The position numbers and the translations under genes are program-made. Below, piece after piece: positions 10,857 to 57,905 of a stretch of DNA of 64,000 nt. Within the stretch, counting starts at the first letter, position 1. Every line of letters starts with the position of its first letter. The DNA is taken from the NCBI GenBank assembly GCA_965208765.1, contig OZ242354.1, positions 2,921,281 to 2,985,280 on the forward strand. The letters run 5' to 3'. The notes under the pieces were generated by a model, which worked only from the letters and a program-made list of their open reading frames with translations, was not told the DNA's origin and searched no databases. Source of the stretch: Candidatus Poribacteria bacterium (GTDB taxonomy: Bacteria; Poribacteria; WGA-4E; JAJDTR01).

Positions 10857-11431
10857 TTAATCCCACGTCTTCGCGGGTTTGACCGACTATTATTCTAACG
10901 GATTATGTCCGATGTTTACAATGGGAAATGAATTTGAGGGGAGGGTACCGTTGGAAACAGTGATTGTTGAAGGAATTTTGTCGTACTGGGAGTTTTATTG
11001 CACGGGATTTTCTATCGCTGTCGCCATCCACTACCTTGATTGCCGTTGGCGATTTCAAAAGCTGGTGGGCAATGCCCACCCTACGGGAAATTGTGCAAAA
11101 AAAGTGGGAGTTGGGCTAGGATTGACCTTCCGACAGAATTTCTTTGTCTGCACTGTGTTCAGACACAACCTCTCCTTTGCACAGGACATTAAAATGGCGG
11201 GCATCAGAATGCGCCGAAGAAAACGGGCGAGTGACAAGCGCCATGTTGTATGATGGAGGACGGATGTCTCTGGATGAGATCGGATAGAGCGGTTGCTTCG
11301 AGAAAAGCAGGATGTGCTTTCCGTCCGAGATCGTGGTGACTATCAGTTGACTTACAATAGAGCCCAACTCGGCGGCGTCGACACAATCTTGGAGTCGTAA
11401 AATGCCGCGAGTTGGGAACTCAGGTAATGCG

Positions 11432-13639: not shown

Positions 13640-15189
13640 TCACCCGCCTCCGTTTCTTCTTTCGATGCTTCTTCGGTAACAATTTCCGCGACAGAACGAT
13701 TGTTATCCGCGAAATATTCGTTCGCTACACGTTTGATATCTTCCGCGGTTATCTTTTCGATGTGTTCCAATAGGTTGAAAATCTCACGCCAGTCACCTCG
13801 GATAAATTCGCTGGTACACAACGCCGCGGCTAAGCCTTGGTTGGAGCGCAACGATCGGATAAAACCGGCTTTCGCGTTCCTCTGGACTTTCTTCAACTCA
13901 TCCTCTGTCACAAGTTCGGTCTTGAGATTCTCAATCTCAGCCATAATCATCTCTTCATTCTTCTCGTTTGAATGCCCTTGCGCCGGGAATGAGTAAACAA
14001 CGAAAAGGTTGGCGTATTTGTCACCCGGATACCCCGGAAACGCGCCGACAGAGATTGAGGCTTTCTCGTCGCGAATCAGTTTCTTGTGAAAACGTGACGT
14101 GCGTCCGGAGGACAGAATGTCCGCAATTGCTCCCAGTACGACAAAATCGGGATGCCTGATGGATGGAACATGGTAAGCGCAGATGAAAATGGGTTGCGAT
14201 TGCTCCGTGAGTTTGACATGCCGCGTACCCAACTGTTTCGGCTCGATGGTTTCGACAAGTGGCGGGTTGGCGCGGGACGGAATTTTGCCGAAGTATTCTT
14301 CCGCCATTTGGATGACTTGGTCTGTTTGGACATCACCTACGATTGCCGCCACCATATTGCTGGGCGCGTAAAACTGCTCGAAGAACGCAAGCGCCTCGGC
14401 ACGCGTGGTCGTGTTGATGTCGGACATGTGACCGATGATCGGACGACCGTACGGATGCGCGAGAAAAGCCAACCCGTTCATTTCTTCTAACAGCCTGCCA
14501 ATGGGGCTACTGCCCACGCGCCCTCGGCGCTCCTCTTTGATGACATCTTTCTCTTTGAAAAATTCCCTCATCACCGGGTCGAGAAACCTCGACGATTCAA
14601 GCGCCATCCAGAGTTCGAGCCGATTTGACGGAAGGCTGTAAAAGTATTCGGTGGAATCTGCGGAGGTGGTTGCGTTGATACCGACAGCCCCTTCCTGTTC
14701 CAGAAGTTTCGAATATTCCTCACCATCGGAATACTGGGATACTTTCTCTTGAAGGGCGTCAAACTCCGCCTGTAACTGTTTCACTCTTTCGGGGTCGGCG
14801 TGATCGGCTTTTACCCACTCGCTCCTGAGTTGGTCGTACACGCCGTCCATCTCATCCATGACGGCTTTCTCTTTTTGGTAATTTTTTGTTCCGAGCGTCG
14901 TCGTTCCTTTGAACGCCATGTGCTCGAAAACGTGGGCGATTCCGGTGTTCCCCACGGGTTCGTCAACGCCGCCGACATTAACGTAGATGTATCCCGAAAA
15001 CACGGGCGCATCGTGCCGCTCGAGGATAATGAACTTCATTCCGTTGGACAACACGTGCTCTTGCACCTGCGCTTCGATGTCTTCGAAGCCCGCGGCGTAT
15101 AGCGCCGCCGCGTATAAGGTCAGCAGCATACAAGCAATTGGTTTGAGTATTTTCATTGTATTTGTTCCGGTGGTTATCAGTTGTCGCAT
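13636..15189 (-). CDS. M16-family zinc peptidase (pitrilysin/PqqL-like), catalytic
   Basis: HVFEHMAFKGT is the inverted zinc-binding HxxEH motif. It has a signal peptide and is 517 aa. Confidence 0.85.
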   Translation of the reverse strand: MRQLITTGTNTMKILKPIACMLLTLYAAALYAAGFEDIEAQVQEHVLSNGMKFIILERHDAPVFSGYIYVNVGGVDEPVGNTGIAHVFEHMAFKGTTTLGTKNYQKEKAVMDEMDGVYDQLRSEWVKADHADPERVKQLQAEFDALQEKVSQYSDGEEYSKLLEQEGAVGINATTSADSTEYFYSLPSNRLELWMALESSRFLDPVMREFFKEKDVIKEERRGRVGSSPIGRLLEEMNGLAFLAHPYGRPIIGHMSDINTTTRAEALAFFEQFYAPSNMVAAIVGDVQTDQVIQMAEEYFGKIPSRANPPLVETIEPKQLGTRHVKLTEQSQPIFICAYHVPSIRHPDFVVLGAIADILSSGRTSRFHKKLIRDEKASISVGAFPGYPGDKYANLFVVYSFPAQGHSNEKNEEMIMAEIENLKTELVTEDELKKVQRNAKAGFIRSLRSNQGLAAALCTSEFIRGDWREIFNLLEHIEKITAEDIKRVANEYFADNNRSVAEIVTEEASKEETEAGE

Positions 15190-15404
15190 CCATATCTCCT
15201 TAGGGAGTGAAAACCTGCCAGTTTCAAGATTAAGCGACTGAAAAAGATGTACTGCGTGAATAACGAAGGATCAACCTACTGAAAAGGGAGGGCGATAGCT
15301 AATCCCATGGAGATCTTCGCGCAATAGAATTCTCTGTTCGAACCGCGATTCCAATTCCCGCCATTGATGTTCCGTAATTATAGGACGAAGGAATGACTAG
15401 CACC

Positions 15405-15879: not shown

Positions 15880-15990
15880 CGCGATTCGGAGAAGATTCCT
15901 ATCGCATGGGGAGCTCTATCGCAGGATTTACTATCGCGCGCTATTAAGATCTCTATCGCCCTCACTGTCCGTTCGGTTGATCTATCCGCT
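15880..15990 (-). repeat. MITE-like dispersed repeat copy (reverse orientation)
   Basis: CAGGATTTACTATCGCGCGCTATTAAGATCTCTATCGCCCTCACTGTCCGTTCGGTTGATC. Confidence 0.55.
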
Positions 15991-17625
15991 CAATTGATCT
16001 CCTATCGGATTGGGATTTGCGAACTCCAGACGTATCAATGTGCCAACTCCTTCCTCACTCGTCACGGAGATCTTGCCGCCGTGATCGGTGACGATTCGCT
16101 GCACAATCGCCATTCCCAAACCGGTTCCGGTTTCCTTTGTCGTGTAGTACGGGGTGAAGATTTTCTCCCGCGTTTCCGGCGACATACCGTTACCGGTGTC
16201 CTGAACCTCCACCGCGACCCTGCCCGTACCAATTGGCTGGGTTGAGATTCGCAACGTTCCGCCGTCCGGCATGGCTTCAACGGCGTTCTTGATCAGATTC
16301 TGCAGGACTTGGGCAATCTGTTCCGGGTCGATGGAGATGCGAGGCAAATCGGAGTTGAGGTCGGTCTCGATCTGAATTTGCGATAGCGATTGGGAGTATA
16401 GATTCAATGTCTGTTCGGCGATTTGATTGAGGTTGGAGGGCTTTCGGTCGGGAAGAGGCATCCGAGCGAATTGATGGAATTCGTCCACCATCCGCTGGAG
16501 CCGGTCGACCTCTTCGATGATGGTCTGGGTGCATTCGTCACAGATGCTGTCGAAGATTTCGGGCTGAGAGCGCGCTTTCTGAAGGTTTTCGACGGAGACA
16601 CGAATGGGAAACAGAGGGTTCTTGATTTCGTGGGCAATCTGGCGTGCTACATCCCGCCAAGCGGCGACGCGCTCGGCACTGATTCGCCGCTCCAAGTTGG
16701 TTTTGAGATCCGCCGCCATCCGGTTGACGCCCTGCGTGAGCTTCCCAATTTCGTCTCGGGTGTGCACATCAAGTTGGTGATCGAGTTCCCCGGAGGCGAT
16801 TCGGCTCACGCCTTCCGTGAGTTGATGAATCGGTTTGGTCATCCTGAGCCCGATTAGGTAGCTGACAATATAAGCGAACAGCAGTCCAACCGCCGCCACG
16901 ACAAAAAGAATCAGCGTCAACTGGCGCTGCAACCTAATCTCGTTTTCGTGGGAATACGCGATAATCAATTCGACGGGTGAACTTGACGACAATGTCGGCA
17001 GCGCGACCGGAATAACACTGTGCGGCATGTCATAAATTTTGATCATTGAGAACCTGCCGGTTTTGCCTGTGCCGGCAGCCTGAAGTAGCCTGCCTCTCTC
17101 GACTGGAACGGAACCTTCCGCTTGATTTAGAGGGATTAACTCATTCGCTTCACGAAGATAGACTGTATGACGTGATTGGTTTCTCAGCGCGCGGTGAAGT
17201 CGATCGCGCAGGAAATATCCACCCGTCACAAATCCCAAGAGCCGCTCGCCCGCCTTGATTGGCAGCGTGACCTCGATTGCCGATTCGGAGGAACTGACCG
17301 CGGCACGGCGCGAGTTTCTGAGCCTAATCGCGGATTTTGGGGCTCTTCCCTTCGCTCGCCCCAATGCCTCCTTATCGACCTCACCGCGCCGTAAGCCCAC
17401 ATCCAATCGACTGGCGATGATTTTCCCGTCCTCGTCCCCGTACTCCAGAATCTGGAGTGCTGTGTCTCGAATCGTGGTCGGCCGAGTTTCTTGGTTTCTG
17501 ATGGCGCGGACGACATCCGGGTCGGTTCTTTCGGTCTCGACCTTCTCCTCAATATCTGTGACAAGATGATTGTGCGTCTCCGAGATGCGCGTTCTGAATT
17601 CTGCTGCTTCCTCACGAATTTGCAC
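15982..17625 (-). CDS. Sensor histidine kinase (NtrY-like: TM, periplasmic region, TM, HAMP, HisKA, HATPase_c)
   Basis: H-box HEIKNPL, N-box LIKNAVEAM, G-boxes DTGNGM and GTGLGM. An N-terminal TM helix (LTYTSLFFVTIGGIFAIASYF) continues upstream of the annotated GTG to about 17733 with no canonical start codon. Confidence 0.8.
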   Translation of the reverse strand: MQIREEAAEFRTRISETHNHLVTDIEEKVETERTDPDVVRAIRNQETRPTTIRDTALQILEYGDEDGKIIASRLDVGLRRGEVDKEALGRAKGRAPKSAIRLRNSRRAAVSSSESAIEVTLPIKAGERLLGFVTGGYFLRDRLHRALRNQSRHTVYLREANELIPLNQAEGSVPVERGRLLQAAGTGKTGRFSMIKIYDMPHSVIPVALPTLSSSSPVELIIAYSHENEIRLQRQLTLILFVVAAVGLLFAYIVSYLIGLRMTKPIHQLTEGVSRIASGELDHQLDVHTRDEIGKLTQGVNRMAADLKTNLERRISAERVAAWRDVARQIAHEIKNPLFPIRVSVENLQKARSQPEIFDSICDECTQTIIEEVDRLQRMVDEFHQFARMPLPDRKPSNLNQIAEQTLNLYSQSLSQIQIETDLNSDLPRISIDPEQIAQVLQNLIKNAVEAMPDGGTLRISTQPIGTGRVAVEVQDTGNGMSPETREKIFTPYYTTKETGTGLGMAIVQRIVTDHGGKISVTSEEGVGTLIRLEFANPNPIGDQLSG

Positions 17626-18062
17626 ATCAAACGCGTTGCGAATAAAATAGCTCGCAATCGCGAATATACCGCCGATGGTGACGAAGAAGAGTGAGGTGTA
17701 CGTGAGGAAGATTTTGTGATGGAGTTTGATAGTCTAGAGGTCCTTTTTTGCCGGTTTGAAACTCTAAGCGCGACTTGAAAAACGCGGTTCAGTATCCTTA
17801 GAAAATTTCATACATTTCATAATTTTCATAACAAACGCGGTTTTTCGGTAGAGGCGGAGAAAGGGCGATAACTCTTACTATCACTGGATTCCGCGCCGTT
17901 TTGCGGTTCACGTCAAGTTTTCACAGTTATGAAATTTTGGTATTAAGTGCCGACGGAATTTTGGACCACACACACGCAACGGTGAGACAAGAGTTGTCAT
18001 TTGAATCCTTGCCAGGACACCGCATAGAGATCCGATGAAAAAACAAACCAGTGGGTGCTGCG

Positions 18063-22610: not shown

Positions 22611-22630
22611 GCTGAATGGCGGGGCAAGAA

Positions 22631-22750
22631 GATCTCTACCGCACTCACTATCCGTTCGCTTGATTCCCGCCTACGGTGCCGGTGGGAACGCGATGTGAGT
22701 TCTATCGCCTTAAGATTTCTATCGCGCTCATTATCCATTCGCTTGATCCC
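22631..22750 (-). repeat. MITE-like dispersed repeat, two adjacent units in reverse orientation
   Basis: GATCTCTACCGCACTCACTATCCGTTCGCTTGATTCCC followed by ...GAGTTCTATCGCCTTAAGATTTCTATCGCGCTCATTATCCATTCGCTTGATCCC. Confidence 0.55.
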
Positions 22751-25083: not shown

Positions 25084-25470
25084 TTCTACTTCTCAATAGC
25101 CATTTTCGTTCATATTCACGCAGGTCTCGGTCAATAAGCAAATGAAATATAGCGAACGATTTAAGATTGTTGCGGCAATCCTATTGTGGTAGCGCTAGTG
25201 GCTCGCGGCAAGAGGTCGCGATCAGGACATCGCTCCTACAGAACCTCTGCTAGTGCGGTGTAAACATCCTTGGGCCCTTAAACAGTCGACGGGGTGAGGA
25301 CAATTCTAACGCACGAGATTTACTGCGAGGACCTGCTATCCATTCGGTTAATCGCAATTCACTCACTTGATAGTTGATCGTACTCTACGGAATTGTGCCA
25401 GTAAGAAACCAAGTTTCAAAGAAAACGGGCTTGTGATCAGAAAGAACCTTGAAAATCGTGAGTTATCATT

Positions 25471-25989: not shown

Positions 25990-26075
25990 CGGGGATCAGA
26001 GACGGACCTCTATCAGAATCTTCTATGGGCTCTCTATCGCCCTCCCGATTCGGTCGGTGGATCATATTGAGCAGT
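25990..26075 (-). repeat. MITE-like dispersed repeat copy
   Basis: GGGATCAGAGACGGACCTCTATCAGAATCTTCTATGGGCTCTCTATCGCCCTCCCGATTCGGTCGGTGGATC. Confidence 0.45.
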
Positions 26076-26711: not shown

Positions 26712-26985
26712 AGAAAGGGATCTCTATCGCCTTCGCTATCCACTCAGTTGATCACCTACCGGCGTGGTAGAATGGGTTTCTTGTGCCAGTCTCGTAAGTA
26801 TTAAATACTTAGCGAGAAAACCACTAAGGATTTTACATTCGGACTTTCGTTGTGCGATTTGTCGTAGCGCAATGTGTTGCATGTTTTCTGGAGGAGCGAA
26901 CTCTGCTCGTGACAAGAAGTCGCGACCTGGAGAAGATCTCTATCGCATTCGCTATCCACTCATTTGATCCCCTACAGTTGTTTTG
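26712..26985 (-). repeat. Two short MITE-like repeat copies in an intergenic region (26712-26760 and 26930-26985)
   Basis: GGATCTCTATCGCCTTCGCTATCCACTCAGTTGATCACCTAC and AGATCTCTATCGCATTCGCTATCCACTCATTTGATCCCCTACAG. Confidence 0.5.
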
Positions 26986-33399: not shown

Positions 33400-34569
33400 G
33401 TGATTGATTCGCTCTTATCCGGCCACTTGATTATTTTCAATCCTTTGGCCCTTACCAAATCAAGTCAATTAATCGTTCGTTTGATTTTTCCGATTTGTTG
33501 ATGGGGTTGATTCCACGCTGGAGGCGTTGGGACATTGCACTCCTACGGAGTGCAGGGCATTGGGCACGTTACATGTTCACGTTACATGTTATTGATATAG
33601 CACTCTTCCAGAGCGCAGAGCGCGCAGATTAGACATTTCATTGGTTTTATAGACAGCGGGATAAGAGCGTAAATTGATGAATTGTCCTTGGTTTTTTATT
33701 GTGCGGATCAGTTATCGTAGGATTAGCTATCAGAATCTACTATCTCCTTCATTTTCGGTCAGCTGATCGTTCGTGTGATAGCGGTTGATGTTGCACCGTA
33801 TTATACAAACAACACCTAAAGTTGACAATTGAAAAGAAAGGTTAAGGCGCGGACCAGGATAATGGACGTCTAATCCAAGGACTATCCAGATTTACGAACC
33901 GATTTAACCGACCGAATAAGTAGGATGATAGAATCCCCGCAATTTCATCATCGGTACCTGACGGCCAAGGCTAGCGCCTATCAAGAAGGCAGCCTAACCG
34001 CGGCATGCTGGAAGACACGCTACTACATCGACCCGCTGCTCCGTGATGGGTCAGAGCTGCTTGAAGCCACGCAGGCACTGGTGACAAATTGCACAGTCAT
34101 GTCATCGACTGTTAGACTTCGCTTTCCGTGAGGATGCATCTCGAATTCGTGAAGAGAACCGTTTTTACGAATTTCCTTTCTGCATGTTTCCGCCACTCCA
34201 AGACGCGTAATGAACGAAGCCCTATCGTCTCAAGATGTCTGTAGGGGATCCAGAGCGGGAACTCATATCCGGTCGGTCGTGCCTTCTTTAGTCCGTCAGC
34301 CGATCATCCGGTTGATTGCTACCACGAACCCTCGGTGCTTGAAACTTAGCGGTACGAAATAGCATTAGACGCGACTGCCCTAGGATGCGCCGGGATTTGC
34401 ATTTACATTCCTCAAGAACCTAGTCTATAATATCGGCACAAAAGCCGTGAATTTAGGTTGCACCCAGCGGCTCAAAGTTGCGGGCAAAAACCAATTGGCG
34501 GAGCACTCAATTCGGCATTTGAAGTCACTCATAACGAACCGGATTTTCGTTTAATGGGAGATCACACCA

Positions 34570-34961: not shown

Positions 34962-34983
34962 GTAGGGTGGGCACTGCCCACCA
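34962..34983 (+). terminator. REP-like perfect hairpin GTAGGGTGGGCA/CTGCCCACC at the 3' end of the VOC gene
   Basis: An 8-bp GC-rich stem, GGTGGGCA with CTGCCCACC. A second hairpin, GGTGCGCAGTGTGCACC, follows at 34994-35010. Confidence 0.5.
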
Positions 34984-38322: not shown

Positions 38323-38382
38323 GTAGGGTGGGATCAAGTGAATGGATAATGAGCGCGATAGGACTCTCCTGCCCACCATCCT
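38323..38382 (+). repeat. REP-like hairpin carrying a shortened MITE insert
   Basis: GTAGGGTGGG, then ATCAAGTGAATGGATAATGAGCGCGATAGGACTCTCC, then TGCCCACC. Confidence 0.55.
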
Positions 38383-38520: not shown

Positions 38521-41500
38521 GTGTCAAGAATCAAACCTATCGTCTGGCTAATTTTCCTTTTGTCCGGGGCAAGCGGCCTCGTTTATGAAGTCGTCTGGAC
38601 ACGCCAACTCACACTCGTTTTCGGTAGCACAGTGTTTGCGACAAGCACGGTGTTGACGGCGTTTATGGGAGGCTTGGCGCTCGGAAGCTATTATTTCGGG
38701 CGCATGGCAGACCGCGAAAGGCGCCCATTGCGACTGTATGCCATCCTCGAAGCGGGAATCGGTGGCTTCGCATTAATCTGGCCCCTACTCTTAAGCGTGT
38801 TGAACGCCATCTACATTCTCGCGTATCGCGGTCTCGGAGCCGAATTTTACGCCCTGTCGCTGATCCGATTCGCGCTTTCGTTCCTCGTTCTGCTCCTTCC
38901 ATCAACCCTGATGGGTGGAACACTCCCCATCCTGAGCCGTTTCTTCGTGAACCGATTGGAGAGACTCGGTCTCAATGTCGGGGCGCTCTACGCGTTGAAC
39001 ACCTTCGGCGCTGTCGTCGGCTGTATCGCGGCGGGGTTCTTCCTCATCCAGTATTTGGGAGTTCAAGCGTCGATTTATCTTGCCGCGGGGATCAATTTCG
39101 CAGTCGCCGTTATCGCGTTTCTGCTAGATAGAATGAGCGTGCAAAACACGGAAAATGGCGAAGTTGAAACCCGAGAAACGCAATCTGCGTCTGATCCAGC
39201 ACCGGTTAATACGGCTTCTGATCCGGTTTTTCGTCTCGTCCTATGGGCTTTCGCTGTATCCGGGTTCTGTGCGCTCTCCTACGAAGTTTTCTGGACTCGC
39301 ATCCTGGTCTTTTTCCTCGGTAGTACGACCTATGCTTTCTCGACGATGCTGGCGGCTTTCCTTTTCGGAATCGCGCTGGGGAGTTTTATCTTCGCGTGGG
39401 TTGCCGACCGACTGAAATCGCTCGTCAACCTGCTGGGTCTGGTTCAGATCGGGATCGGACTCGCCGCAGTGGCGCTGATACCCGCCTTCGGAGGACTTTA
39501 CGGCATCAGCAGCACGCTCCAATCCATGTTCGGAGGAGGGCGGTTTTGGGCATTTTTCGCCTGCGTCATCGTGATGAGCCTACCGACACTGTTGATGGGG
39601 ATTAGTTTTCCACTCGTCGCTCGCATCTACACGGTTAACGCTGCTAAACTCGGGCGAAGCATCGGGAACGTCTACGCGCTCAACACCGTCGGATCCATCC
39701 TTGGCGCCTTCTGCGCGGGGTTCATCTTTATTCCCTTAATCGGTATTCGCCCGGGCATTGTCCTGATGGCGGCGCTCAACCTCATTGTCGGATGCGTTCT
39801 AATCTTTCGGAACGAAAATCGGTCTCGGTTCTTCAACGGCGCGGCAGTGGGCGGTACGATTGTGACCGCCGGAATAGCCGTAATCATTCTTTTCGCGGCG
39901 AACAAGCCGCTCTTCCTTAAAAGCGCCATCTTTCGCACACAGCGACCCGGTGACACCATCATTGACTACAAGGAGGAGGTTGACGCAACCGTCACCACGC
40001 TCAAGGACGATGAAGATGTGTACCGGCTATATGTGGATACGAATCAGGCAGCCGACGCTTCCCGTTGGGATTCGCCGTCGCACCGTGTCATTGCTCATCT
40101 CCCGCTGCTGCTGCATCCGAATCCGAAACGGGCGCTTGTGGTCGGGTTTGGCATGGGCGTGACCTCCTACTCGATTACGCAGCACGGCGTCCGTGTTGAT
40201 GCCGTGGAAATATCGAAAGGGGTGGTTGACTCCGCGCGGGCGCATTTCAGCCATGTCAACCACGATGTTCTGGATAATCCGCTGTTCAGCCACTTTATCA
40301 ATGATGGGCGAAACTACATCCTGATGACCCGGCAGAAATACGACATGATTTCGACCGGAATCATCCACCCACTAGTTAGCGCGGGAAGCTCAAACATCTA
40401 CACCGCGGATTTTTATCGCCTTTGTCGGCGGATCCTGACGGACGACGGAATCATGTGTCAATGGGTGCCGCTGCACCGCGTCCCCGAAGGGCACTATAAA
40501 ACGATCGTGAGGACATTCGTCAAGGTGTTTCCGCACACGACGCTCTGGTACAAGTATACTCCGGACTTCGTTATCCTTATCGGCACGCCTCACCCGCTCA
40601 GGATTAACTACGAAGACTTTCTGGCGCGCGCAGAAATTCCAAGCATCCGCGAAGGACTTGCGCACGACGATTTGGACAGCATGTCACTGCTCGACTCGTT
40701 CATGATGGGCGAGAAACGAGTGCTTGAATACGTCGGGGACGGTCCTATCCATACTGACAACCGCCCGCATCTGGAATTCTTCCGTGCGCAAGACCTTGCA
40801 AATACAACACCCGTCAACATTGTAGGAATGACGAAACACCGTGAACGGGTGACAGCCTATTTGGATAACTACGGTCGCACCATTGACCAGAAAAAAGAGA
40901 TCAGAGGACAAATTCGTCAGTATTTCGATGCCACCGAGAAGCTGATTCAGGGACAGATTGAGTACGCCAAAGGAGACTACGACCGAGCGGTCGGTTTGCT
41001 TAATCAAGCGACCGCCATCAATCCGGACGATGAAACGATTCACTACAACCTCCGAGTTGTCGCGGACCTATTTAACGAGGAATACCAAGGAGAGCTCAAG
41101 CAGCTTGAGCAGCTCGTGAAACAGGCGCAGCAAAAGGATCCCAAAGACGCTGAAGGCTATCTTCAACTGGCGGTCATCTATGAAGGTCAGGGCAAGCTGG
41201 AGGAGGCAGCCGAAGCCTTGGAGCAGGCTATCGATATCGAGCCGGCTAAGGTGCAATTCTATCTGCTGCTAGGACCGATCTATGAACGCCAAGAGCGCTT
41301 TGACGAGGCATTACGCACCTACCGGCGGCTTGAAAAGGTGGATCCAAATCTGCCCGCACCGATTTTGCAGGCGATGGCGTTCATTCAACATCAAAAGAAG
41401 GAGCACGACGACGCGCTGAAACACGCCAAAAGGGCGTTGGAGGCGGACGCAACTTCATGGCGCACCCACTATCTCTTGGGCAGCATTTATGCCGCCAAAG

Positions 41501-41712
41501 ATGAGGGTCAAAGGGCGATTCAATCCTATCGACGGGCAATCGAACTTGCACCCAACGAACCTATACCGCATACCGACTTGGCAGAGTTGTACTTTTCGCG
41601 GAAACGGTATGACGACGCGCTGAAAGCCAATGCGTCAGCAATCCGCCTCGCACCGGGTGTCCCGGAGCTTGAGGAGCAGCGCCGGCGGATCCAGGCTGCA
41701 ATGCCAAAGTAA
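38521..41712 (+). CDS. Fused membrane (MFS-like, about 13 TM) / spermidine-synthase-like (PABS) / C-terminal TPR-repeat protein
   Basis: Two runs of TM helices and a PABS domain (LVVGFGMGVTSYSI...DAVEIS...DMISTG). Four to five TPR repeats lie at the C-terminus. GTG start. Confidence 0.8.
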   Translation: MSRIKPIVWLIFLLSGASGLVYEVVWTRQLTLVFGSTVFATSTVLTAFMGGLALGSYYFGRMADRERRPLRLYAILEAGIGGFALIWPLLLSVLNAIYILAYRGLGAEFYALSLIRFALSFLVLLLPSTLMGGTLPILSRFFVNRLERLGLNVGALYALNTFGAVVGCIAAGFFLIQYLGVQASIYLAAGINFAVAVIAFLLDRMSVQNTENGEVETRETQSASDPAPVNTASDPVFRLVLWAFAVSGFCALSYEVFWTRILVFFLGSTTYAFSTMLAAFLFGIALGSFIFAWVADRLKSLVNLLGLVQIGIGLAAVALIPAFGGLYGISSTLQSMFGGGRFWAFFACVIVMSLPTLLMGISFPLVARIYTVNAAKLGRSIGNVYALNTVGSILGAFCAGFIFIPLIGIRPGIVLMAALNLIVGCVLIFRNENRSRFFNGAAVGGTIVTAGIAVIILFAANKPLFLKSAIFRTQRPGDTIIDYKEEVDATVTTLKDDEDVYRLYVDTNQAADASRWDSPSHRVIAHLPLLLHPNPKRALVVGFGMGVTSYSITQHGVRVDAVEISKGVVDSARAHFSHVNHDVLDNPLFSHFINDGRNYILMTRQKYDMISTGIIHPLVSAGSSNIYTADFYRLCRRILTDDGIMCQWVPLHRVPEGHYKTIVRTFVKVFPHTTLWYKYTPDFVILIGTPHPLRINYEDFLARAEIPSIREGLAHDDLDSMSLLDSFMMGEKRVLEYVGDGPIHTDNRPHLEFFRAQDLANTTPVNIVGMTKHRERVTAYLDNYGRTIDQKKEIRGQIRQYFDATEKLIQGQIEYAKGDYDRAVGLLNQATAINPDDETIHYNLRVVADLFNEEYQGELKQLEQLVKQAQQKDPKDAEGYLQLAVIYEGQGKLEEAAEALEQAIDIEPAKVQFYLLLGPIYERQERFDEALRTYRRLEKVDPNLPAPILQAMAFIQHQKKEHDDALKHAKRALEADATSWRTHYLLGSIYAAKDEGQRAIQSYRRAIELAPNEPIPHTDLAELYFSRKRYDDALKANASAIRLAPGVPELEEQRRRIQAAMPK

Positions 41713-41790
41713 TAGGCATACCCCGTATGCCGTTACCAGAAGAACAAAGTAGTAGGCATACTCCGTATGCCGTAACCGGAAGAACTACCG
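41713..41790 (+). terminator. Tandem 33-bp direct repeats, each a GGCATAC..GTATGCC hairpin, after the fusion gene
   Basis: TAGGCATACCCCGTATGCCGTTACCAGAAGAAC and TAGGCATACTCCGTATGCCGTAACCGGAAGAAC. Confidence 0.5.
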
Positions 41791-41850: not shown

Positions 41851-43104
41851 ATGCAGATTCAATCACCAAAGGGGACGAGAGACATTCTCCCTTCAGATAT
41901 CCAGACTTGGCAATGGGTGGAGAAAGTTGCGAGATCGGTTTTCGAGACCTACGGCTATCAGGAGATCCGAACTCCGATCTTCGAGAGCACCGAACTCTTC
42001 GTGCGCGGCGTTGGCGATACCACCGACATCGTTGAAAAGGAGATGTACACTTTTGACGATAAAGCCAACCGCAGCATCACGCTCCGCCCGGAAGGCACGG
42101 CGCCGGTGGTCCGCGCAATTCTCCAGAATCGGTTGCTGGAGGGAACAAATGTGCTAAAACTGTATTACAACGGGCGCATGTACCGTTACGAAAGACCGCA
42201 GAAAGGGCGTTTTCGCGAGCACTGGCAGGTCGGTGTGGAGGTCTTCGGGGCTGCGGGACCTGCCGTTGATGCAGAAGTCATTGCGTTAGCCCACCACTTC
42301 TACTCGACACTCGGTTTCAAAGATTTGATGTTACATCTCAACACCATCGGCGACCGCACCTGTCGCCCAAACTATGTGACGAAGCTCAAGGCGTTCACGA
42401 AGAGCCGTCTCGATCAGTTCTGTAAGGAGTGCCAAGGACGCTATGAGCGCAATCCGTTACGCCTTTTCGACTGCAAGAAGGGCTGCCGCGAGATCCTTGC
42501 CGAAGGTCCTCGACTGATGGACTATCTAAGTGAACCGTGTCGTGAACATTTCGATTCGGTCAAGCATTATCTAGATTTGTCAGGGATAGACTATACCGAG
42601 AATCCGGATCTCGTAAGGGGGATGGACTACTACTCCCGCACCACGTTTGAATTCACCGCTGGCGGTCTCGGTGCGCAGAACGCTATAGGCGGCGGCGGAC
42701 GCTACGATTATCTCGTCGAAGAACTTGGTAGCAAGTCAACCCCGGGAATCGGGTTCGGGCTTGGCGTTGACCGTATCATACTCGCATTGCAGGCGCAAGA
42801 AGTCGCGATTCCGACGCAGCCCCACGTCGAAGCGTATATCGCCGTGCTCGGGGACGATGCGATGCCGGTTGCCTTTCAATTGGCGCAACGCCTTCGGATA
42901 GGTGACATCCGAACCGAGCTTGAGCACACCGGACGCAGCTTGAAAGCACAGATGAAAACGGCAAACAAGCTTGATGCGCGGTACGTCGTCATCCTCGGTG
43001 AAGATGAGATTAGAGACGAAACTGCGACAGTGCGCGATATGGGGACCGGCGAACAACAGTCCATTGGGTTTAACCAATTGGTTGAGAAATTGAGGACACA
43101 CTAA
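41851..43104 (+). CDS. hisS: Histidine--tRNA ligase
   Basis: PKGTRDILP, class II aaRS motifs 1-3 and a C-terminal anticodon-binding domain. 417 aa. Confidence 0.9.
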   Translation: MQIQSPKGTRDILPSDIQTWQWVEKVARSVFETYGYQEIRTPIFESTELFVRGVGDTTDIVEKEMYTFDDKANRSITLRPEGTAPVVRAILQNRLLEGTNVLKLYYNGRMYRYERPQKGRFREHWQVGVEVFGAAGPAVDAEVIALAHHFYSTLGFKDLMLHLNTIGDRTCRPNYVTKLKAFTKSRLDQFCKECQGRYERNPLRLFDCKKGCREILAEGPRLMDYLSEPCREHFDSVKHYLDLSGIDYTENPDLVRGMDYYSRTTFEFTAGGLGAQNAIGGGGRYDYLVEELGSKSTPGIGFGLGVDRIILALQAQEVAIPTQPHVEAYIAVLGDDAMPVAFQLAQRLRIGDIRTELEHTGRSLKAQMKTANKLDARYVVILGEDEIRDETATVRDMGTGEQQSIGFNQLVEKLRTH

Positions 43105-43118
43105 GTCTGAGGAACTTT

Positions 43119-43213
43119 CGTAGGGTGGAATCAAGCGAATGGATAATGAGCGATCAACTGAGTGGATAACGAAGACGATAGTAGATCCTGATAGGACTCC
43201 CCTGCCCACCAGC
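43119..43213 (+). repeat. REP hairpin with a full MITE insert, copy 1 in the hisS-aspS spacer
   Basis: GTAGGGTGG, then AATCAAGCGAATGGATAATGAGCGATCAACTGAGTGGATAACGAAGACGATAGTAGATCCTGATAGGACTCCCC, then TGCCCACCAGCC followed by TTTTTT. Confidence 0.65.
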
Positions 43214-43455
43214 CTTTTTTCCGCGCAACATTCCCTGTAGGAGCGAGTTTCACTCGCGACAGAAAATCTCGTGACTTGGAGTTGATCCTAAAAGGCTTGT
43301 GGGGGTAATCTTTCGAATCAAGATAGAACCAATGAGTCAGCCTTTTGTAAGCCACGGAGTGGCGGAAGGTGTATAGAAATGCCGAAACCCGAGCCGTTCA
43401 AGCCCCAGCGGGGCGACAGGTGACAACCTGCATAACCCAAGGGCTTTAGCATTCG

Positions 43456-43556
43456 TAGGGTGGAATCAAGCGAATGGATAATGAGCGATCAACTGAGTGG
43501 ATAACGAAGATGATAGTAGATCCTGATAGGATTTCCCTACCCACCAGCCTTTTTCC
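43456..43556 (+). repeat. REP hairpin with a full MITE insert, copy 2 (about 95% identical direct repeat of copy 1)
   Basis: Same 100-bp sequence with a few substitutions (GAAGATGATAG, GGATTTCCCTACCCACC). Confidence 0.65.
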
Positions 43557-43732
43557 CTGGAATATTTACTGTAGGAGCAAGTTTCACTCGCGACCTGGAG
43601 GTCGCTCCTACAGTAAGTTCGAGGTCGAGATCCTCCACTAGAAAATAATTTCTTCCTTTTATCTTCACCGCGCATAATGAATGAACAGAATACTGACCCA
43701 CTCATACCACAAGGAGAACCGAAATACACACA

Positions 43733-45739
43733 ATGCCTGAAATGAAAAGGACGCACTATTGCGGAGAACTGCGGCTCGCCGACGCCGGAAAATCTGCCCG
43801 ACTAACCGGCTGGGTCGCCCGCCGTCGAGACCACGGCGGCGTCATATTCGTCGATCTACGCGATCGGACAGGAATCACGCAGGTCGTCTTCGATCCGGAG
43901 ATCGACCCCGAATCACACCAACTCGCACACCAGATTCGTAACGAATTTGTGTTGTGCGCCGCCGGGAGTGTACGCGAGCGCGTCGAAGGCGACCTATTGG
44001 CGCTGACGGATCGAAAGCATCAAGCCGACCTCGACGCCGGTCACCTCTCCGAGGATCTCAAATCTACGTTCGAAGACGATAGACATTCACTCTCGGCGGA
44101 CGTGACGGTTACCGTTCGAGAAACAGGGAGCCGATGGCTGATCACCGACAATGAGAGCAGCCGAACCTACGCGGCGAAAGTCGTTGACGACGCGCTCCAC
44201 ATCTATCAGGGCACCGTCAATCCTGAGCTTGACACCGGCGAAATCGAGCTGGCAACGAATCAGCTAGAGATCTTGAACCGCGCCGAAACGCCGCCGTTCC
44301 CCGTGGAAGACGAGATCGATACCGACGAAGAGATTCGCATGACGTACCGCTACATCGATCTCCGCCGTCCCAAGATGCAGAAGATGTTGTCCGTTCGACA
44401 CAAAGCCATGCTCGCCGCCCGGAAGTACATGGATGAGCAGGGGTTCCTTGAAATCGAAACACCAATCCTGATGAACAGCACGCCCGAAGGCGCGCGGGAC
44501 GTGCTCAGCCCAAGCCGACTCAATGCCGGCAACTTCTACGCGCTGCCGCAATCGCCGCAGCAGTTCAAGCAGATCCTGATGATGAGCGGCGTTGACCGCT
44601 ACTTCCAGATTCCCCGCTGTTTCCGCGATGAGGACACCCGCGCCGACCGGCAGCTCGAGTTCACGCAACTTGATCTTGAGATGTCCTTTGCGACAGTGGA
44701 TGAGGTCCTCGAAGTCAGCGAAGGATTGATGAAACGCATGTTTGAGGAAGCCGCGGGGATTCCGGTACCGACGCCGTTTCCGCGTATTTCCTACCACGAC
44801 TCCATGGCGCGGTTCGGGAACGACAAACCGGACACCCGCTTTGGGATGGAACTCTCCGACCTCTCCGATCTCGTCGCCGGCTGCGATTTCAAGGTGTTTA
44901 CCGGCGCCTTGGAACGGAAGGGGCAGGTGAAGGGGATCGCCGTGCCCGGCGGAGCGGCGTTTTCACGAAAAGAGATTGAGGACTTGACCGAATTTGTGGG
45001 GATCTACAAGGCGAGGGGATTGGCGTGGATAAAAGTGACCGAGAAGGGGTTCGAATCCAGCATCGTCAAATTCTTCAGCGAGGAGACGCTCAAAGCGGTG
45101 GCGGGACGGATGGAAGCAAAACCGGGAGACATCATGATGTTCGTCGCCGATCAGCCGAAGGTGGTTGCGGATGCCCTGTCAAACCTGCGGCTTCAACTCG
45201 GACGGCAACTCGATCTCATTGACGAGAGCCGATTCGACTTTCTCTGGATTGTCGATTATCCGCTATTCGATTGGAACGAAGACGAAAACCGTTACGAACC
45301 CTTCCACCACCTCTTTACGGCACCGACCGACGACAGTATTCCGCTGTTGGAGACCGATCCCGGTAACGCCCAATCGCAGCACTACGATCTCGTCATCAAC
45401 GGCATAGAGATTTGCAGCGGCAGCGTCCGAATCCATCGCTGGGACATCCAGCAAAAGGTGCTGGAACTCCTGAACATCGGTCCCGAAGAGGTCGAACGGC
45501 GTTACGGCTACTTCATCAAAGCGCTGCAGCACGGCACTCCGCCGCACGCCGGAATCGCCCCCGGGCTGGACCGCATCTTGATGCTGATGACCGGCGAGGA
45601 GAATATCCGAGAGGTCATCGCCTTCCCCAAAACCCAAAAAGGCTTATGCCTCCTCACCAGCGCCCCCTCCCAAGTCACGGACGAACAGTTGGAGGAGTTG
45701 TCAATTAAGGTTGATTTGGAGGATCAAGCGAGCGAATAG
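43733..45739 (+). CDS. aspS: Aspartate--tRNA ligase with an insertion of about 75 aa in the N-terminal anticodon-binding OB domain
   Basis: OB-fold (GWVARRRDHGGVIFVDLRD), class II motifs, GAD insertion domain and C-terminal GLDR. 668 aa against a typical 590. Confidence 0.9.
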   Translation: MPEMKRTHYCGELRLADAGKSARLTGWVARRRDHGGVIFVDLRDRTGITQVVFDPEIDPESHQLAHQIRNEFVLCAAGSVRERVEGDLLALTDRKHQADLDAGHLSEDLKSTFEDDRHSLSADVTVTVRETGSRWLITDNESSRTYAAKVVDDALHIYQGTVNPELDTGEIELATNQLEILNRAETPPFPVEDEIDTDEEIRMTYRYIDLRRPKMQKMLSVRHKAMLAARKYMDEQGFLEIETPILMNSTPEGARDVLSPSRLNAGNFYALPQSPQQFKQILMMSGVDRYFQIPRCFRDEDTRADRQLEFTQLDLEMSFATVDEVLEVSEGLMKRMFEEAAGIPVPTPFPRISYHDSMARFGNDKPDTRFGMELSDLSDLVAGCDFKVFTGALERKGQVKGIAVPGGAAFSRKEIEDLTEFVGIYKARGLAWIKVTEKGFESSIVKFFSEETLKAVAGRMEAKPGDIMMFVADQPKVVADALSNLRLQLGRQLDLIDESRFDFLWIVDYPLFDWNEDENRYEPFHHLFTAPTDDSIPLLETDPGNAQSQHYDLVINGIEICSGSVRIHRWDIQQKVLELLNIGPEEVERRYGYFIKALQHGTPPHAGIAPGLDRILMLMTGEENIREVIAFPKTQKGLCLLTSAPSQVTDEQLEELSIKVDLEDQASE

Positions 45740-45778
45740 TAGTCGTAGGGTGCGCACTGCGCACCAGCCTTTGGTCTT

Positions 45779-45807
45779 GTAGGGTGGGCGCCGCCCACCA
45801 TTTTTTT
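45779..45807 (+). terminator. Rho-independent terminator after aspS
   Basis: GTAGGGTGGGCGCCGCCCACCA followed by TTTTTTT. It is preceded by a second REP-like hairpin, GTAGGGTGCGCACTGCGCACC, at 45744-45768. Confidence 0.7.
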
Positions 45808-45819: not shown

Positions 45820-45990
45820 TTGTAGGGTGCGATCAAGAAGCGAATAGATAAACTGAGCGGATAGCGAAGGCGATAGAGATTCCCCGCGCACCAGCCTTTG
45901 ATCTTTTAGGGTGGGATCAAGCGACCGGATAGAATCAACCGAACGAATAGTGAGGGCGATAGTAAATCCTGCGCGATAGAGGTTTCTCGT
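45820..45990 (+). repeat. Two adjacent MITE-like units, the first inside a GGTGCG/CGCACC REP hairpin
   Basis: GTAGGGTGCG, then ATCAAGAAGCGAATAGATAAACTGAGCGGATAGCGAAGGCGATAGAGATTCCCC, then GCGCACCAGCC. This is followed by TAGGGTGGGATCAAGCGACCGGATAGAATCAACCGAACGAATAGTGAGGGCGATAGTAAATCCTGCGCGATAGAGG. Confidence 0.6.
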
Positions 45991-46064
45991 CATATTGCAG
46001 ATTTCTTTTCTTACTGCCCACCAAGAGCTAACCTCCACCAACGAACACACACAGTCGGAAACAT

Positions 46065-52828: not shown

Positions 52829-55805
52829 ATGAACCTAAACCAACTCGACATCCCAATCCAACCCGTTGAACAGCCCATCCTGTGCAGCCCCTACGCAGAA
52901 CCGAGCGCCCACTGGGTCTACGACACCGAGACCGGCGAAGCCATCCGGCAACCCGGACGCCGTGACGCCGGCTACTGGTACAAAACCGAGCGCACGGGCA
53001 GCGGGCAACTTCAGATTTTCCGCGAAGAGGAATGGGACGATTTGCCTTTGGTGAATAGACTACGCGACGATGTCCGAAGATGGAGAGAATCGAACTACCG
53101 AAACGCCACCAATGTAACGCGTGAACTCCTGAACCATTGGAGGCGCGAAGATAGGGAGCGGCGGCTGTTTTTCTGCCAGCTTGAAGCCGTTGAGACGGTT
53201 ATTTGGCTTGCCGAGATTCGCAGCGGGGGCAAACGCGTTAGTTTTATCCCAAATTCACTGATGACGATCGAAACAAGCTGGCTGATCCACCCGACGACAC
53301 TGACCTTCCCGAACTCATTCGCTACGGGTGCAAGATGGCGACCGGCAGCGGCAAAACCGTGGTGATGGCGATGCTGATTGCGTGGGCGTTCTGCAACCGC
53401 GGCAAAGTGCCCTCCGACGAGCGCTTTCCGAAAGCCGCGCTAGTCGTCTGCCCGAACCTGACCATCAAAGAACGGCTTCTGGTGCTCCGCCCGAATCGTC
53501 GGACAACTACTACGATGCGTTTGAACTCATTCCGACGAAACTCCGCCCGCTGCTCAACGGCGGCAAGGTGCTGGTGACGAACTGGCATCAATTCGCCTTG
53601 GAATCCCCGCAGGCGGAGGGCGGCTCCACCTACTCCGTCGTGAATAAAGGCGAGGAGACGCCGGATGCATTTGCGCAGCGTGTACTGGGCGAACTCTATG
53701 ACCGCGCGCCAATCATGGTGCTCAACGATGAGGGGCACCACGCCTACCGCCCTGCGCCGGTTGAGGAACAGCTATCCGCCGAGGAGCAGAATGAACGCCA
53801 AGATGCCACCGTTTGGATTAGCGGTCTGGACCGGATAAACTCCGCCTGCGGCGTCCGCTTCTGCGTCGATCTCTCCGCCACGCCCTTCTATATACACGGC
53901 AGCGGCCACCCGGAAGGTACCCCCTTCCCTTGGCTCGTCAGCGATTTCGGATTGGTGGACGCCATTGAGAGCGGCATCACCAAGATTCCGCGCTTGCCCG
54001 TCAGCGACACCACCGGTCGTCCCGAACCCAAATACTTCCGTCTGTGGCGCGCGATTAACGACCAAATCCTACCGGCTGATCGATTGCCAGGTAAGGCGAA
54101 GAAGCCCAAACCGGAAGCCGTGTACCGTGAAGCCGAGGACGCGCTAAACACTCTCGCCAGCCAGTGGGTGGAACGCTTTGGCTACATCCGGCAGGCATCC
54201 GATGCCAAAGACAAAACGCCGCCCGTCATGATTATCGTCTGCGACAATACCGACATTGCCGAACATTTCTTCCGAAAAATCTCCGGCGAGGTGGAAGTTG
54301 AAGACCTTGCAGAAAACGGTGGGAAGAGAAAAAAGAAAAAGGCGACCAAGACGGCATACGGACAAGGTACGGTGTTTCCCGACTTGCTGTCGAACGAACG
54401 GGACGTGCTGCGAACCCTGAGAATTGACAGCAAGATGTTGGCTGACGCGGAAAGCGACGAAACGGGAAAGAACAAAGCCCAAGCTGCCGAGGATTTGCGT
54501 CAGATTGTGGCGACGATTGGAAAGCCCGGCAAACCCGGCGAACAGGTGCGATGCGTCGTGTCCGTGGCGATGTTGAACGAAGGCTGGGACGCCAACAACG
54601 TCACGCATATCCTCGGACTGCGAGCCTTCACCAGCCAACTCCTCTGTGAACAGGTGGTTGGCAGGGGTTTGCGGCGCATGAACTACACCCCCGATCCGGA
54701 AACCGGCTTGTTGACCGAAGAATATGTCGATGTGTACGGTATCCCGTTTTCCGTCATCCCGTTCAAAGGGCGCCGCCCCGGCGCATCTGCGCCTGACCCT
54801 CCGAAGAATCATTTACGCGCCATGCCCGAACGGAAGGACTACGAGATACGTTTTCCGGTTGTGGAGGGGTACGTCTTTGCGCTCCGAAAGAACGAAATCA
54901 AGGCGGACATCAAGTCAATGGAGCCGCTCTTCGTTGAACCTGAACAGACACCCACTGCCGTTTTCGTCAAACCCGCTGTCGGCTACGAAACCGGTAATCC
55001 TTCCGCCTTGGGTCCCGGACAATTCGAAGAGCAAAATCGCCAAGAATATTACAGGACGACGCACATTCAAGCCATCAAGTTCGAGATTGCGCGGCGAATT
55101 GTCCTGAATTTGGTCGGCGGGGCCAATTTTCCACGCGATAGTAGGAGTGATCCCAAGCTTCGGTTTCAATCCCGACACCGTCTATTCCCTCAAGTCTACA
55201 GATTGGTTGATGCTTATGTCGAAATAAAAGTCGACTTTCGCGAGTGTAATCCGTGCGAGATTGGTCAAGAAAAATACACCAATCGCATAGTGGAACGCCT
55301 GACGGCGGCAATCCAACCTAACGAAGCAGAAGGTGAAACCCCGCTGCTGCCCATCCGGAATCGTTACAAACCCATCGGCACATCGGCGGAAGTGGATTTC
55401 ATGACTACCCGATCCTGCCACGGCACGGAACGCAGCCAAATCAACCAAGTCGTTCTGGATACCGAGAGGTGGGAACGTTCATCCTGCTTCCGTCTGGAGC
55501 AATCCGAGGTTGTTGACTACTATGTCCGCAACGACCACCTTGGATTCGGCATTCCATACGAATACACCGACGTGTCCCACCACTTTGAGCCCGATTTTAT
55601 TGTCCGACTCAAGAACGATGTCAACCTAATCGTGGAAATTAAGGGTCACGAAACCGATCAGGAACTTGCCAAGTATGCAGGCGCGGAACGATGGGTGTCC
55701 GCCGTCAACAACTGGAATGAGCTTGGAAAATGGGATTTCCACGTGTGCCGCGACCCGCAGCTGCTGGAGCGTGAGCTAATGTACATCGTCCAATCGGGCG
55801 AGTGA
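52829..55805 (+). pseudogene. res: Type III restriction enzyme Res subunit (SF2 helicase plus C-terminal endonuclease), disrupted by two -1 frameshifts
   Basis: Three consecutive frames: 52829-53365, 53335-53577 (Walker A, MATGSGKT) and 53328-55805 (DEGH box, helicase motifs, C-terminal PD-ExK IVEIKGHE). The frame changes occur at TTTTATCCCAAATT (about 53240-53262) and CCGCCCGAA (about 53485-53495). Confidence 0.8.
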
Positions 55806-55960
55806 GCGAAAGATCGAACAGTAAGAGCGATCAACCGAGCGGAAAGTGCGGGCGATAGAAATTCTGTTCGTTAGTGGTTCCGTGATCGTTGACGATTCAC
55901 TCGTTTGATTTTCACGGGCGCTTTCAAAGGCTGGTGCGCATTGCGCACCCTACAGATTTG
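55800..55960 (+). repeat. Degenerate MITE-like unit followed by a reverse-orientation REP hairpin
   Basis: GATCGAACAGTAAGAGCGATCAACCGAGCGGAAAGTGCGGGCGATAGAAATTC..., then GGCTGGTGCGCATTGCGCACCCTAC. Confidence 0.5.
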
Positions 55961-57799: not shown

Positions 57800-57905
57800 C
57801 TCTTAGGGATTCCTCAAGTTCAGGATTTCCTATTGCCTTAGGACATCTATCGCACTCCTTATTCAGTCAGTTGATCGCACCCTAAAGAAATGGTGGGCAG
57901 TGCCC
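57800..57905 (-). repeat. MITE-like unit (reverse orientation) plus a complete REP hairpin
   Basis: GATTTCCTATTGCCTTAGGACATCTATCGCACTCCTTATTCAGTCAGTTGATCGCACCCTA, then ATGGTGGGCAGTGCCCACCCTAC. Confidence 0.55.

Follow-up and report, generated by a model that had tools for sequence, protein, structure and literature searches.

Very small interspersed repeats are common in bacteria, and their movement is largely unexplained. In pneumococcal BOX elements the number of tandem boxB units varies between fixed boxA and boxC ends. IS200/IS605 insertion sequences (IS) have two subterminal hairpins that differ from each other, and their insertion, which is clean, takes place 3' of a fixed tetra- or pentanucleotide. 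The small dispersed repeats (SDR) of Nostoc and Anabaena, which Elhai et al. are said to have described in 2008, are reportedly 21-27 nt long, show signs of mobility, lie mostly nested in other repeats, and have no associated transposase and an unknown mechanism of spread. Repetitive extragenic palindromes (REPs) have been found inside other palindromes (Di Nocera 2013, PMC3733652), and REPs or bacterial interspersed mosaic elements (BIMEs) are themselves targets of IS1397, ISKpn1 and other IS (PMC94167; PMC1525189; both as cited in PMC3116915). We analysed a 64,000-nt stretch of DNA from a Candidatus Poribacteria bacterium (the window; assembly GCA_965208765.1, contig OZ242354.1, 2,921,281-2,985,280, forward strand) and describe a 37-nt module that recurs in it. 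Its closest analogues are REPs and their hairpin-forming doublets (REPINs), the cyanobacterial very small dispersed repeats and single-strand IS200/IS605-type elements, and it lacks defining features of miniature inverted-repeat transposable elements (MITEs), of REPs/REPINs and of palindrome-associated transposable elements (PATEs). The family is real and apparently undescribed. With roughly even confidence we favour the reading that the module is a tiny mobile DNA, non-autonomous and active in single-stranded form.

We found the module between hisS (41851-43104) and aspS (43733-45739), whose identities, given in an initial annotation of this DNA, were confirmed by Pfam. The spacer (43104-43733) measures 628 nt in the window and 95 nt in a relative (L117). 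It contains two direct repeats of 106 nt each (43117-43222 and 43452-43557), 95% identical and each adjoined by a further 45-nt repeat. They belong to a block of about 150 nt that is present twice, 335 nt apart, and are a local duplication. Each copy consists of GTAGGGTGG, a 74-nt insert and TGCCCACC (the right part being TACCCACC in the second copy), the outer parts forming a split hairpin. The window has 8 occurrences of GTAGGGTGG, where 0.2 would be expected, and 29 of GCGATAG, where 7 would be. The initial annotation had described the direct repeats and the split hairpin correctly. It had taken the insert for a single element of about 85 bp with three GCGATAG heptamers as internal structure; we found instead two nested 37-nt units, the heptamers being present as the 3' tails of these units.

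The unit was defined from 160 seed matches with their flanks, followed by a weight-matrix census of 1.05 Mb. It has the form G1ATCAA-N7N8-GA-N11N12-GRATA-R18N19-GA-N22N23-GCGATAG-AGATCC, and a single module of 37 nt was by far the commonest form in the census (184 of 391 clusters). Among 160 distinct single modules, 119 had the head GATCAA, 128 a GAATA or GGATA loop and 145 the tail GCGATAG, the GRATA loop and the tail being almost invariant. Only GATC (4-5 nt) is common to both ends, and a subfamily (..GATAGTCTTCAC) lacks even that.

A covariance model was then built from 150 copies, and full modules were called at E<1e-3. This gave 16 full modules in the window (Table 1), in agreement with the earlier count of at least 15, plus partial and decayed copies. 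Copies had previously been listed at 975-1050, 15880-15990, 22631-22750 (two), 25990-26075, 26712-26760, 26930-26985, 38323-38382, 45820-45990 (two), 55800-55960 and 57800-57905, and the model recovered all of these. Of the remaining entries in that list, 1-100 is truncated by the window edge and therefore partial, two have decayed (25310-25385 and 33700-33790, recognised only with the weight matrix or by eye), and 17840-17900 is not a copy; two copies had been missed (11005-11041 and 15246-15334). All copies had been called intergenic, which is correct except for two that reach into the last codons of genes through their 5' half, comprising head and hairpin (the A-unit).

We next consider the hairpin. 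N7N8 pairs with N22N23 and N11N12 with R18N19, with a tandem G.A/A.G mismatch in between and a closed GRATA loop. In our alignment (A1), 96.1% of cells at the four pairs were standard pairs, and both-sided changes were found at all four (182 cells). None of 500 shuffles matched the observed pairing values, and pairing fell to 25-44% when the 3' partner was slid as a control. RNAalifold independently yielded exactly the same four pairs. The tandem mismatch was kept, with G9.A21 in 95% and A10.G20 in 97% of copies, and it sits in a pyrimidine-GA-purine context in 82-92%. G.T made up 29% of cells at two of the pairs while A.C made up 1-3%, showing that selection for folding acts on the written strand only. 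Among 357 distinct A-units, both N7N8/N22N23 pairs were formed in 69% (30% expected at random) and both N11N12/R18N19 pairs in 81% (44% expected). The outer and inner stem sequences occurred in 64 combinations; there have therefore been many independent changes, and a handful of clonal subfamilies is not the source of the covariation signal. The GATC/GATC bracket is near-constant, so it gives no covariation for or against a helix there. Kink-turn or box C/D-like motifs have a tandem sheared G.A after a 3-nt bulge next to a canonical stem; the module has the tandem G.A, with two covarying pairs on each side and no bulge. Hammerhead, kink-turn, ToxI-like and CRISPR-repeat readings were all rejected, as sequence or arrangement did not fit and Rfam was negative.

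The modules were also found to nest in one another. Both hisS-aspS inserts are bracket-like, with an outer A-unit, a complete inner module and an outer tail (B). An extra ATAG..ATCC tail lay directly downstream in 39 of the 47 cores that had an extra A-unit directly upstream, compared with 70 of 285 cores that had none (Fisher p = 2e-14). The point of self-insertion is between the 3' foot of the hairpin and the GCGATAG tail. Two genomes 92% identical over the aligned stretch (L023 and L030) differ by a 34-nt indel that is one module within another. Inverted modules enter the same point, in the order rcB-A-B-rcA. Fourteen single-module (AB) copies start directly after TCTATC. Two adjacent 8-kb pieces of OZ244829.1 (4.704-4.720 Mb; L080, positions 1-2700, and L082) are extremely repeat-dense. 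They contain 27 module clusters, of which 22 lie on one strand, interleaved with REP1 (described below) and H5-type REP units and with small genes encoding coiled-coil proteins (..DKRIDGLDKRIDDLNANMNARF..).

The hairpin that holds both spacer inserts, REP1 (GTAGGGTGSGCAYTGCSCACC), has the properties of a REP, that is an imperfect palindrome of 20-40 nt, an unpaired GTAG tag at one end, extragenic location and many copies (PMC3733652). As had been noticed at the outset, it also occurs empty, at 34962-34982 with variants at 45745-45765 and 45779-45799. There are five empty units in the window and 51 in the loci from our genome scan, all those seen being intergenic. Loop lengths of 92 REP1 units (1.1 Mb) were 4-5 nt (71 units), 37-39 nt (13), 54 nt (1), 72-74 nt (3) and other (4), rising in steps of about 34 nt. 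We compared the window with a close relative (L115) whose hisS is 90% identical. Just after the hisS stop, REP1 holds an insert in the window, while L115 has the bare hairpin (GTAGGGTGCGCACTGCGCACC) between the same two flanks; for an H6-type unit in the same spacer (CAAGCCCCAGCGGGGCGACAGGTG) the situation is reversed, with a module in L115 and none in the window. In REP1 the module lay forward in 23 cases and reverse in 2, and of 378 clusters, 122 had GTAG no more than 12 nt upstream of their module start and only 5 had CTAC; orientation relative to the host GTAG tag is nearly fixed.

A second, unrelated insert also occurs in REP1 loops (GATCGGCGATTGTCAAATCGTCGAATTCCCCTCTTCTCTTAC and GATTCGCGATCGCAATTCGCCGATTTCTTCTCTTAC). 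It is found in L115 at 6517-6558 and around 13930-13965, at sites where the window holds the 37-nt module, and one REP1 loop of the window (45908-46023) contains a module array together with a tail of this second type (45986-46015, ..GATTTCTTTTCTTAC followed by TGCCCACC).

Insertion into a hairpin loop, which the initial annotation had proposed as the target, thus holds for REP1, where the empty orthologue and the discrete loop lengths support it, but it is not general. Modules occurred at the 5' side, loop, 3' arm or 3' foot of at least six repeat families. Besides REP1, a GTAGGAGCGATCTCC..GTCGCGAC repeat carries them after its GTAG, GCCCCAGAGGGGC at its 3' foot and GCACTCCAGAGGAGTGC at three separate points, and they also lie within GGTAGGTGCGGTT..AACCGCACC and GTAGGCGGGG..CCCCGCC. 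They were also present in non-repeated DNA. Flanks were complementary over at least 6 nt in 10% of cases, hardly above the flank-shuffled control (7%), which rules out that modules always lie in a hairpin loop. When filled host repeats were compared with empty ones (50 comparisons), the module was seen to replace 1-5 host bases, with no target duplication. The replaced bases mostly start with G (GCG, GCA, GCC, GG, GA, GCAT), and the two bases upstream show only R then G/C. Clean insertion at a G^C step fitted two cases (L036 against L109 and L043 against L007; 34 nt) but not most junctions. An explanation based on GATC (Dam sites or restriction-ligation) was likewise rejected, given empty sites without GATC and 244 GATC in the window against 250 expected.

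Copies in other genomes were searched for with the pattern ATCAANNGANNGRATAGYGANNGCGATAG in one genome per species (185,579 species). At least 114 loci carried it, and all listed matches came from metagenome-assembled genomes of Candidatus Poribacteria (at least 13 assemblies). The window proteins had relatives of 90-96% identity in ENA and Logan assemblies, more distant matches being named Poribacteria. L115 contained 6 modules in 21 kb, while 58 kb of three relatives at 80-83% identity (L116-L118) contained no module and no REP1. The module is restricted to one lineage within the Poribacteria, which are sponge symbionts. Rfam 15 gave no match at the gathering score in the whole window, and at E up to 10 only chance-level matches between 43000 and 46100, none on a module. 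A literature search found no paper with module sequences or describing REPs of Poribacteria, in keeping with the earlier impression that no described family was involved. IMG/VR viral contigs gave 0 module matches, and a phage origin was rejected.

Two genes take their final five codons and their stop from an A-unit, read in the same frame in both (45722-45739, and 15982-15999 on the minus strand). In the window aspS ends GAT CAA GCG AGC GAA TAG (..LEDQASE-stop), and its orthologues end ..LEQE-stop (L115) and ..KVDL-stop (L117); the open reading frame (ORF) 15982..17625(-) ends GAT CAA TTG AGC GGA TAG (..DQLSG-stop). Modules therefore rewrite gene 3' ends. They also inflate and scramble intergenic regions in Poribacteria, and they will confuse assembly, binning and the prediction of terminators and small RNAs.

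With REPs/REPINs and REP-associated tyrosine transposases (RAYTs) the module shares small size, extragenic location, high copy number, a hairpin with compensatory stem changes, a TAG-type tag nearby and strand specificity (PMC2817692; PMC3116915; PMC3733652). The host hairpins are ordinary GTAG REPs (GTAG plus palindrome), and the module differs from them in having only four Watson-Crick pairs plus the tandem G.A and in inserting into REPs and into itself, the reverse of the REP-in-palindrome arrangement mentioned above. It has no 5' GTAG or CGTC, with (G)ATCAA 5' of the hairpin and GATAG 3', and no inverted copies flank the RAYT genes examined, the nearest ones in the window lying outside H5 REPs. 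IS1397 and ISKpn1 likewise use REP hairpins as preferred landing sites but are full-length IS3-family elements that encode a transposase and make duplications, whereas the module has 37 nt and is non-coding. BOX, Correia, ERIC, RUP and the minisatellite-bearing MITE of P. gingivalis (PMC4596501) are also intergenic modular repeats with varying module number; the module has a far smaller unit, a bracket order (A A B B) and no real terminal inverted repeats. It cannot be called MITE-like, as had been suggested, since the ends share 4-5 nt (GATC) where about 10 nt or more, matching the ends of an IS, are required, and target-site duplications are lacking in the filled/empty comparisons. The SDR, as reported, resemble the module in a size below 100 nt, nesting in other repeats and absence of a linked transposase. 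The module belongs to another phylum, has another sequence and 37 nt, and shows a covariation-supported tandem-G.A hairpin and systematic self-nesting. With IS200/IS605 elements and PATEs it shares the lack of notable terminal inverted repeats, one active strand, target-fixed orientation and, probably, hairpin recognition. Absence of target duplication together with putatively functional hairpins on one strand also agrees with IS200/IS605-type elements.

The strand-specific fold, the lack of duplication, the orientation fixed to the REP strand that is recognised by RAYTs and the insertion at hairpins, including the module's own, argue for a transaction of single-stranded DNA of the HUH/Y1 kind. 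We infer that the folded form is single-stranded DNA and not RNA, and that an enzyme acting in trans would recognise the hairpin together with its GCGATAG tail. This enzyme would most likely be an HUH/Y1 transposase (RAYT or IS200/IS605-like), since these enzymes use hairpins on a single DNA strand as substrates and do not duplicate the target. The module would enter G-rich steps in or beside REP stem-loops; within copies of itself, the entry site would be the 3' foot of the hairpin. In the process 1-5 bases would be replaced, the sequence growing by about 34 nt without target duplication. Repeated self-insertion would produce nested A-A-B-B arrays such as the inserts of about 74 nt in both hisS-aspS REP hairpins. 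Filled host repeats then spread as units too, by duplication, REP turnover or gene conversion, and such copying certainly contributes. A bolder version, which we regard as doubtful, is a new minimal replicator, in which a single-stranded DNA hairpin of 34-37 nt would carry all cis signals for strand-specific cutting and joining by a host or hitch-hiked HUH-type enzyme and would integrate at G/C steps of extruded hairpins, its own included, with a few bases replaced, in a reaction distinct from those of DDE, IS200/IS605 and RAYT/REPIN systems. If so, the module would be the smallest structured mobile DNA known and a main builder of intergenic DNA in this sponge-symbiont lineage. The family offers clear handles on such movement (a unit of constant length, 37 nt, a hairpin proven by covariation whose tandem G.A is invariant, a defined point of self-insertion, close relatives with empty and filled sites and many long-read genomes of one uncultivated phylum), making the minimal cis-acting signal for single-stranded DNA mobility a testable question.

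Several observations weigh against mobility as single-stranded DNA. The arms of the hisS-site REP1 both differ, with the G variant in the window and the C variant in L115, and therefore the filled REP may have arrived as a whole, and not by insertion of a module at that place. Many modules lie within composite repeats of more than 140 nt with flanks matching elsewhere, so independent insertions are well below the copy number. Module junctions are untidy, the replaced host stretch varying from 1 to 5 nt, and a single hairpin, a loosely G-rich target and replaced bases do not match IS200/IS605 targeting. The fold had a z of about 0 against shuffled sequence with both DNA and RNA nearest-neighbour parameters, so that minimum free energy gives it no thermodynamic support; presumably the hairpin is weak alone and needs a partner. 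No clear replichore bias was seen when module strand was plotted against position in a sparse sample of four chromosomes. No enzyme was linked to the module at the RAYT loci and inverted module pairs examined: 18 loci with RAYT homologues (L119-L136) are flanked by H5 or H6 REPs and have no modules, and none of 21 inverted module pairs enclosing a single ORF encloses a transposase, which also eliminates an autonomous parent element among them. Finally, sequence alone does not separate single-stranded DNA from RNA.

We therefore weighed other explanations. The module could be a structured RNA motif, a protein-binding or stabilising hairpin in transcripts (3' untranslated regions or small RNAs) whose spread would merely accompany the turnover of REPs. 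On RNA, tandem G.A motifs are well known as platforms for protein binding, and the covariation accepts G.U and not A.C. Gene orientation in the window alone also pointed this way, with 10 sense and 3 antisense clusters between tandem genes (ORFs of at least 110 aa), as did the modules within 120 nt downstream of gene ends (72 sense, 38 antisense). The window bias disappeared between tandem genes of 119 sources, with 63 sense and 58 antisense for flanking ORFs of at least 200 aa and 75 and 84 at another length cut-off, so a cis-acting element of the 3' untranslated region was rejected and an RNA role fits the orientation data poorly. Local strand coherence was modest, with 76.6% in the majority orientation against 68.5 +/- 1.7% at random. 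As the modules also nest in one another inverted, have no Rfam match up to E 10, fold no better than shuffled sequences and are missing from relatives that keep the same genes, we consider an RNA motif unlikely. We are similarly sceptical of purely passive spread, by which one or a few ancient insertions would have been multiplied with their host REPs or composites (by RAYT, gene conversion or segmental duplication), with multi-unit arrays made by slippage. The duplicated hisS-aspS block, the flanks shared with long composite repeats, the lack of a cognate transposase at the loci examined and the two differing REP arms, as expected of whole-REP replacement, all speak for it. It does not account for a same-ended 37-nt unit that occurs in unique DNA as well as in six or more host families unrelated in sequence, and at three or more positions within family H5, nor for nesting in both orientations, always at the hairpin foot. 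The L023/L030 indel falls within a module, slippage does not predict the balanced A-A-B-B order, and passive copying gives no reason for compensatory maintenance of the hairpin.

The CGATAG motifs had also been proposed as protein-binding sites. Arrays of such sites in duplex DNA (iterons), read by a regulator or nucleoid protein that recognises GATAG/GATAA, or the related idea of DnaA-box-like TGGATAA, would suit the near-invariance of loop and tail and the GATAR spacing of about 12 or 23 nt in the hisS-aspS copies. Duplex binding needs no complementarity between N7N8 and N22N23 or N11N12 and N18N19, and it leaves the asymmetry of G.T and A.C unexplained, the covariation being that of pairing within a single strand. 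The bases needed for a DnaA box (R14, R18, N11-12) vary, and those that vary covary as a hairpin; GATC is neither over- nor under-represented in the window. We rejected the DnaA-box and iteron readings of TGGATAA/CGATAG, and the chance that duplex binding explains the family seems very small.

The RAYT gene at 242-703 of the window (Y1_Tnp, PF01797, E 7e-28), to which the initial annotation had tentatively linked the repeat, is flanked by two plus two inverted H5-type REPs (CGCTCCAGNGGAGCG plus 8-9 nt plus TAG) at 150-225 and 745-820. This is the classic RAYT arrangement, and modules lie farther out, inverted (1-100 minus, 978-1050 plus). Given these flanks, the homologous loci without modules and a single module copy, 77 nt downstream of the gene, at L137/L138, we rejected this RAYT as the cognate transposase. 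REP1 does not flank it either, and no RAYT cognate to REP1 turned up in the sequence examined. Y1 transposase and TnpB genes are present in these genomes. One RAYT locus recovered from many samples (L127-L136) varies in length between strains, by 42 and 166 nt, immediately downstream of the RAYT, where the following gene starts at 3081, 3123 or 3247, and in L129 an OrfB_IS605/TnpB gene lies upstream of it.

Table 1. Modules, host REPs and related features of the window (positions within the 64,000 nt; bits from the covariance model)
Feature	Position	Strand	Remarks
Module, inner unit of A A B B array 978-1050	1001-1037	+	56.7 bits
Module, diverged, adjoining empty REP1	11005-11041	-	26.1 bits
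Module in array 15246-15334	15269-15305	+	36.1 bits
Module in array 15892-15999	15946-15982	-	51.4 bits; outer A-unit gives end of ORF 15982..17625(-)
Module with GGCGGG/CCCGCC flanks	22629-22665	-	55.3 bits
Module	22712-22748	-	58.5 bits
Module, diverged	26027-26063	-	35.6 bits
Module inside H2-type REP (GGTAGGT, module, TTTCTAACCGCACC)	26717-26753	-	60.7 bits; empty counterpart in L007
Module directly after GTAG tag of H3-type REP	26933-26969	-	60.1 bits
Empty REP1 hairpin (GTAGGGTGGGCACTGCCCACC), unfilled reference	34962-34982	+	
Single module in REP1 loop (GTAGGGTGG, module, CTGCCCACC)	38332-38368	+	49.5 bits
REP1 left arm plus GTAG tag (GTAGGGTGG), first copy	43120-43128	+	orthologous L115 site is empty hairpin GTAGGGTGCGCACTGCGCACC
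Outer module 5' half: A-unit AATCAA plus hairpin GCGAAT-GGATA-ATGAGC	43129-43151	+	
Inner complete 37-nt module (GATCAACTGAGTGGATAACGAAGACGATAGTAGATCC), nested after hairpin foot of outer module	43152-43188	+	49.7 bits, E 2.8e-10
Outer module 3' tail (TGATAGGACTCCCC)	43189-43202	+	extra-tail statistics, 39/47 cores
REP1 right arm (TGCCCACC), first copy	43203-43210	+	
Second REP type (CTGTAGGAGCGAGTTTCACTCGCGAC), within duplicated block	43235-43260	+	family D2; conserved at orthologous place in L115
Two H6-type REP units (..GGCGGAAGGTGTATAG.. and CAAGCCCCAGCGGGGCGACAGGTG)	43352-43428	+	empty in window, module-filled in L115
Filled REP1, second copy	43455-43545	+	inner module 39.8 bits
Second copy, left arm	43455-43463	+	
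Second copy, outer A-unit	43464-43486	+	
Second copy, inner module	43487-43523	+	
Second copy, outer tail	43524-43537	+	
Second copy, right arm	43538-43545	+	
Inverted pair of second REP type (CTGTAGGAGC...GCTCCTACAG)	43569-43613	+	I2, 13-nt arms, 100% complementary
Module in loop of C-variant REP1 (45823-45892)	45847-45883	+	52.4 bits
Module, inner unit, in REP1 loop 45908-46023	45933-45969	+	53.4 bits; loop also holds tail of second insert type
Module, then inverted partial unit	55829-55865	+	47.3 bits
Module adjoining empty REP1	57840-57876	-	44.9 bits

Some further features of this region were noted. The CTGTAGGAGCGAGTTTCACTCGCGAC REP family occurs twice in the hisS-aspS spacer, the second site being REPIN-like with its perfect inverted pair, and the family resembles the GTAGGAGCGAGCTTGCTCGCGAA-type REPs of Pseudomonas. 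Upstream of hisS, at 41705-41785, a 40-nt unit is tandemly duplicated (90% match) from the last codons of ORF 38521..41712 past its stop. Both copies carry the hairpin GGCATAC-CCC-GTATGCC, and the orthologous L115 spacer is without the unit. The aspS product is long (668 aa), about 110 residues separating the anticodon-binding OB fold (23-86) from the catalytic domain (from 198), and this stretch matched no Pfam family. In L118 (17525-19550) the adjacency of hisS and aspS is broken, with aspS about 6 kb downstream and in two ORFs (277 and 196 aa), pointing to a frameshift or pseudogene. In L116 (5850-6520) hisS is followed by leucine-rich repeat (LRR) and Big_1 surface-protein genes, so the adjacency is lost there as well.

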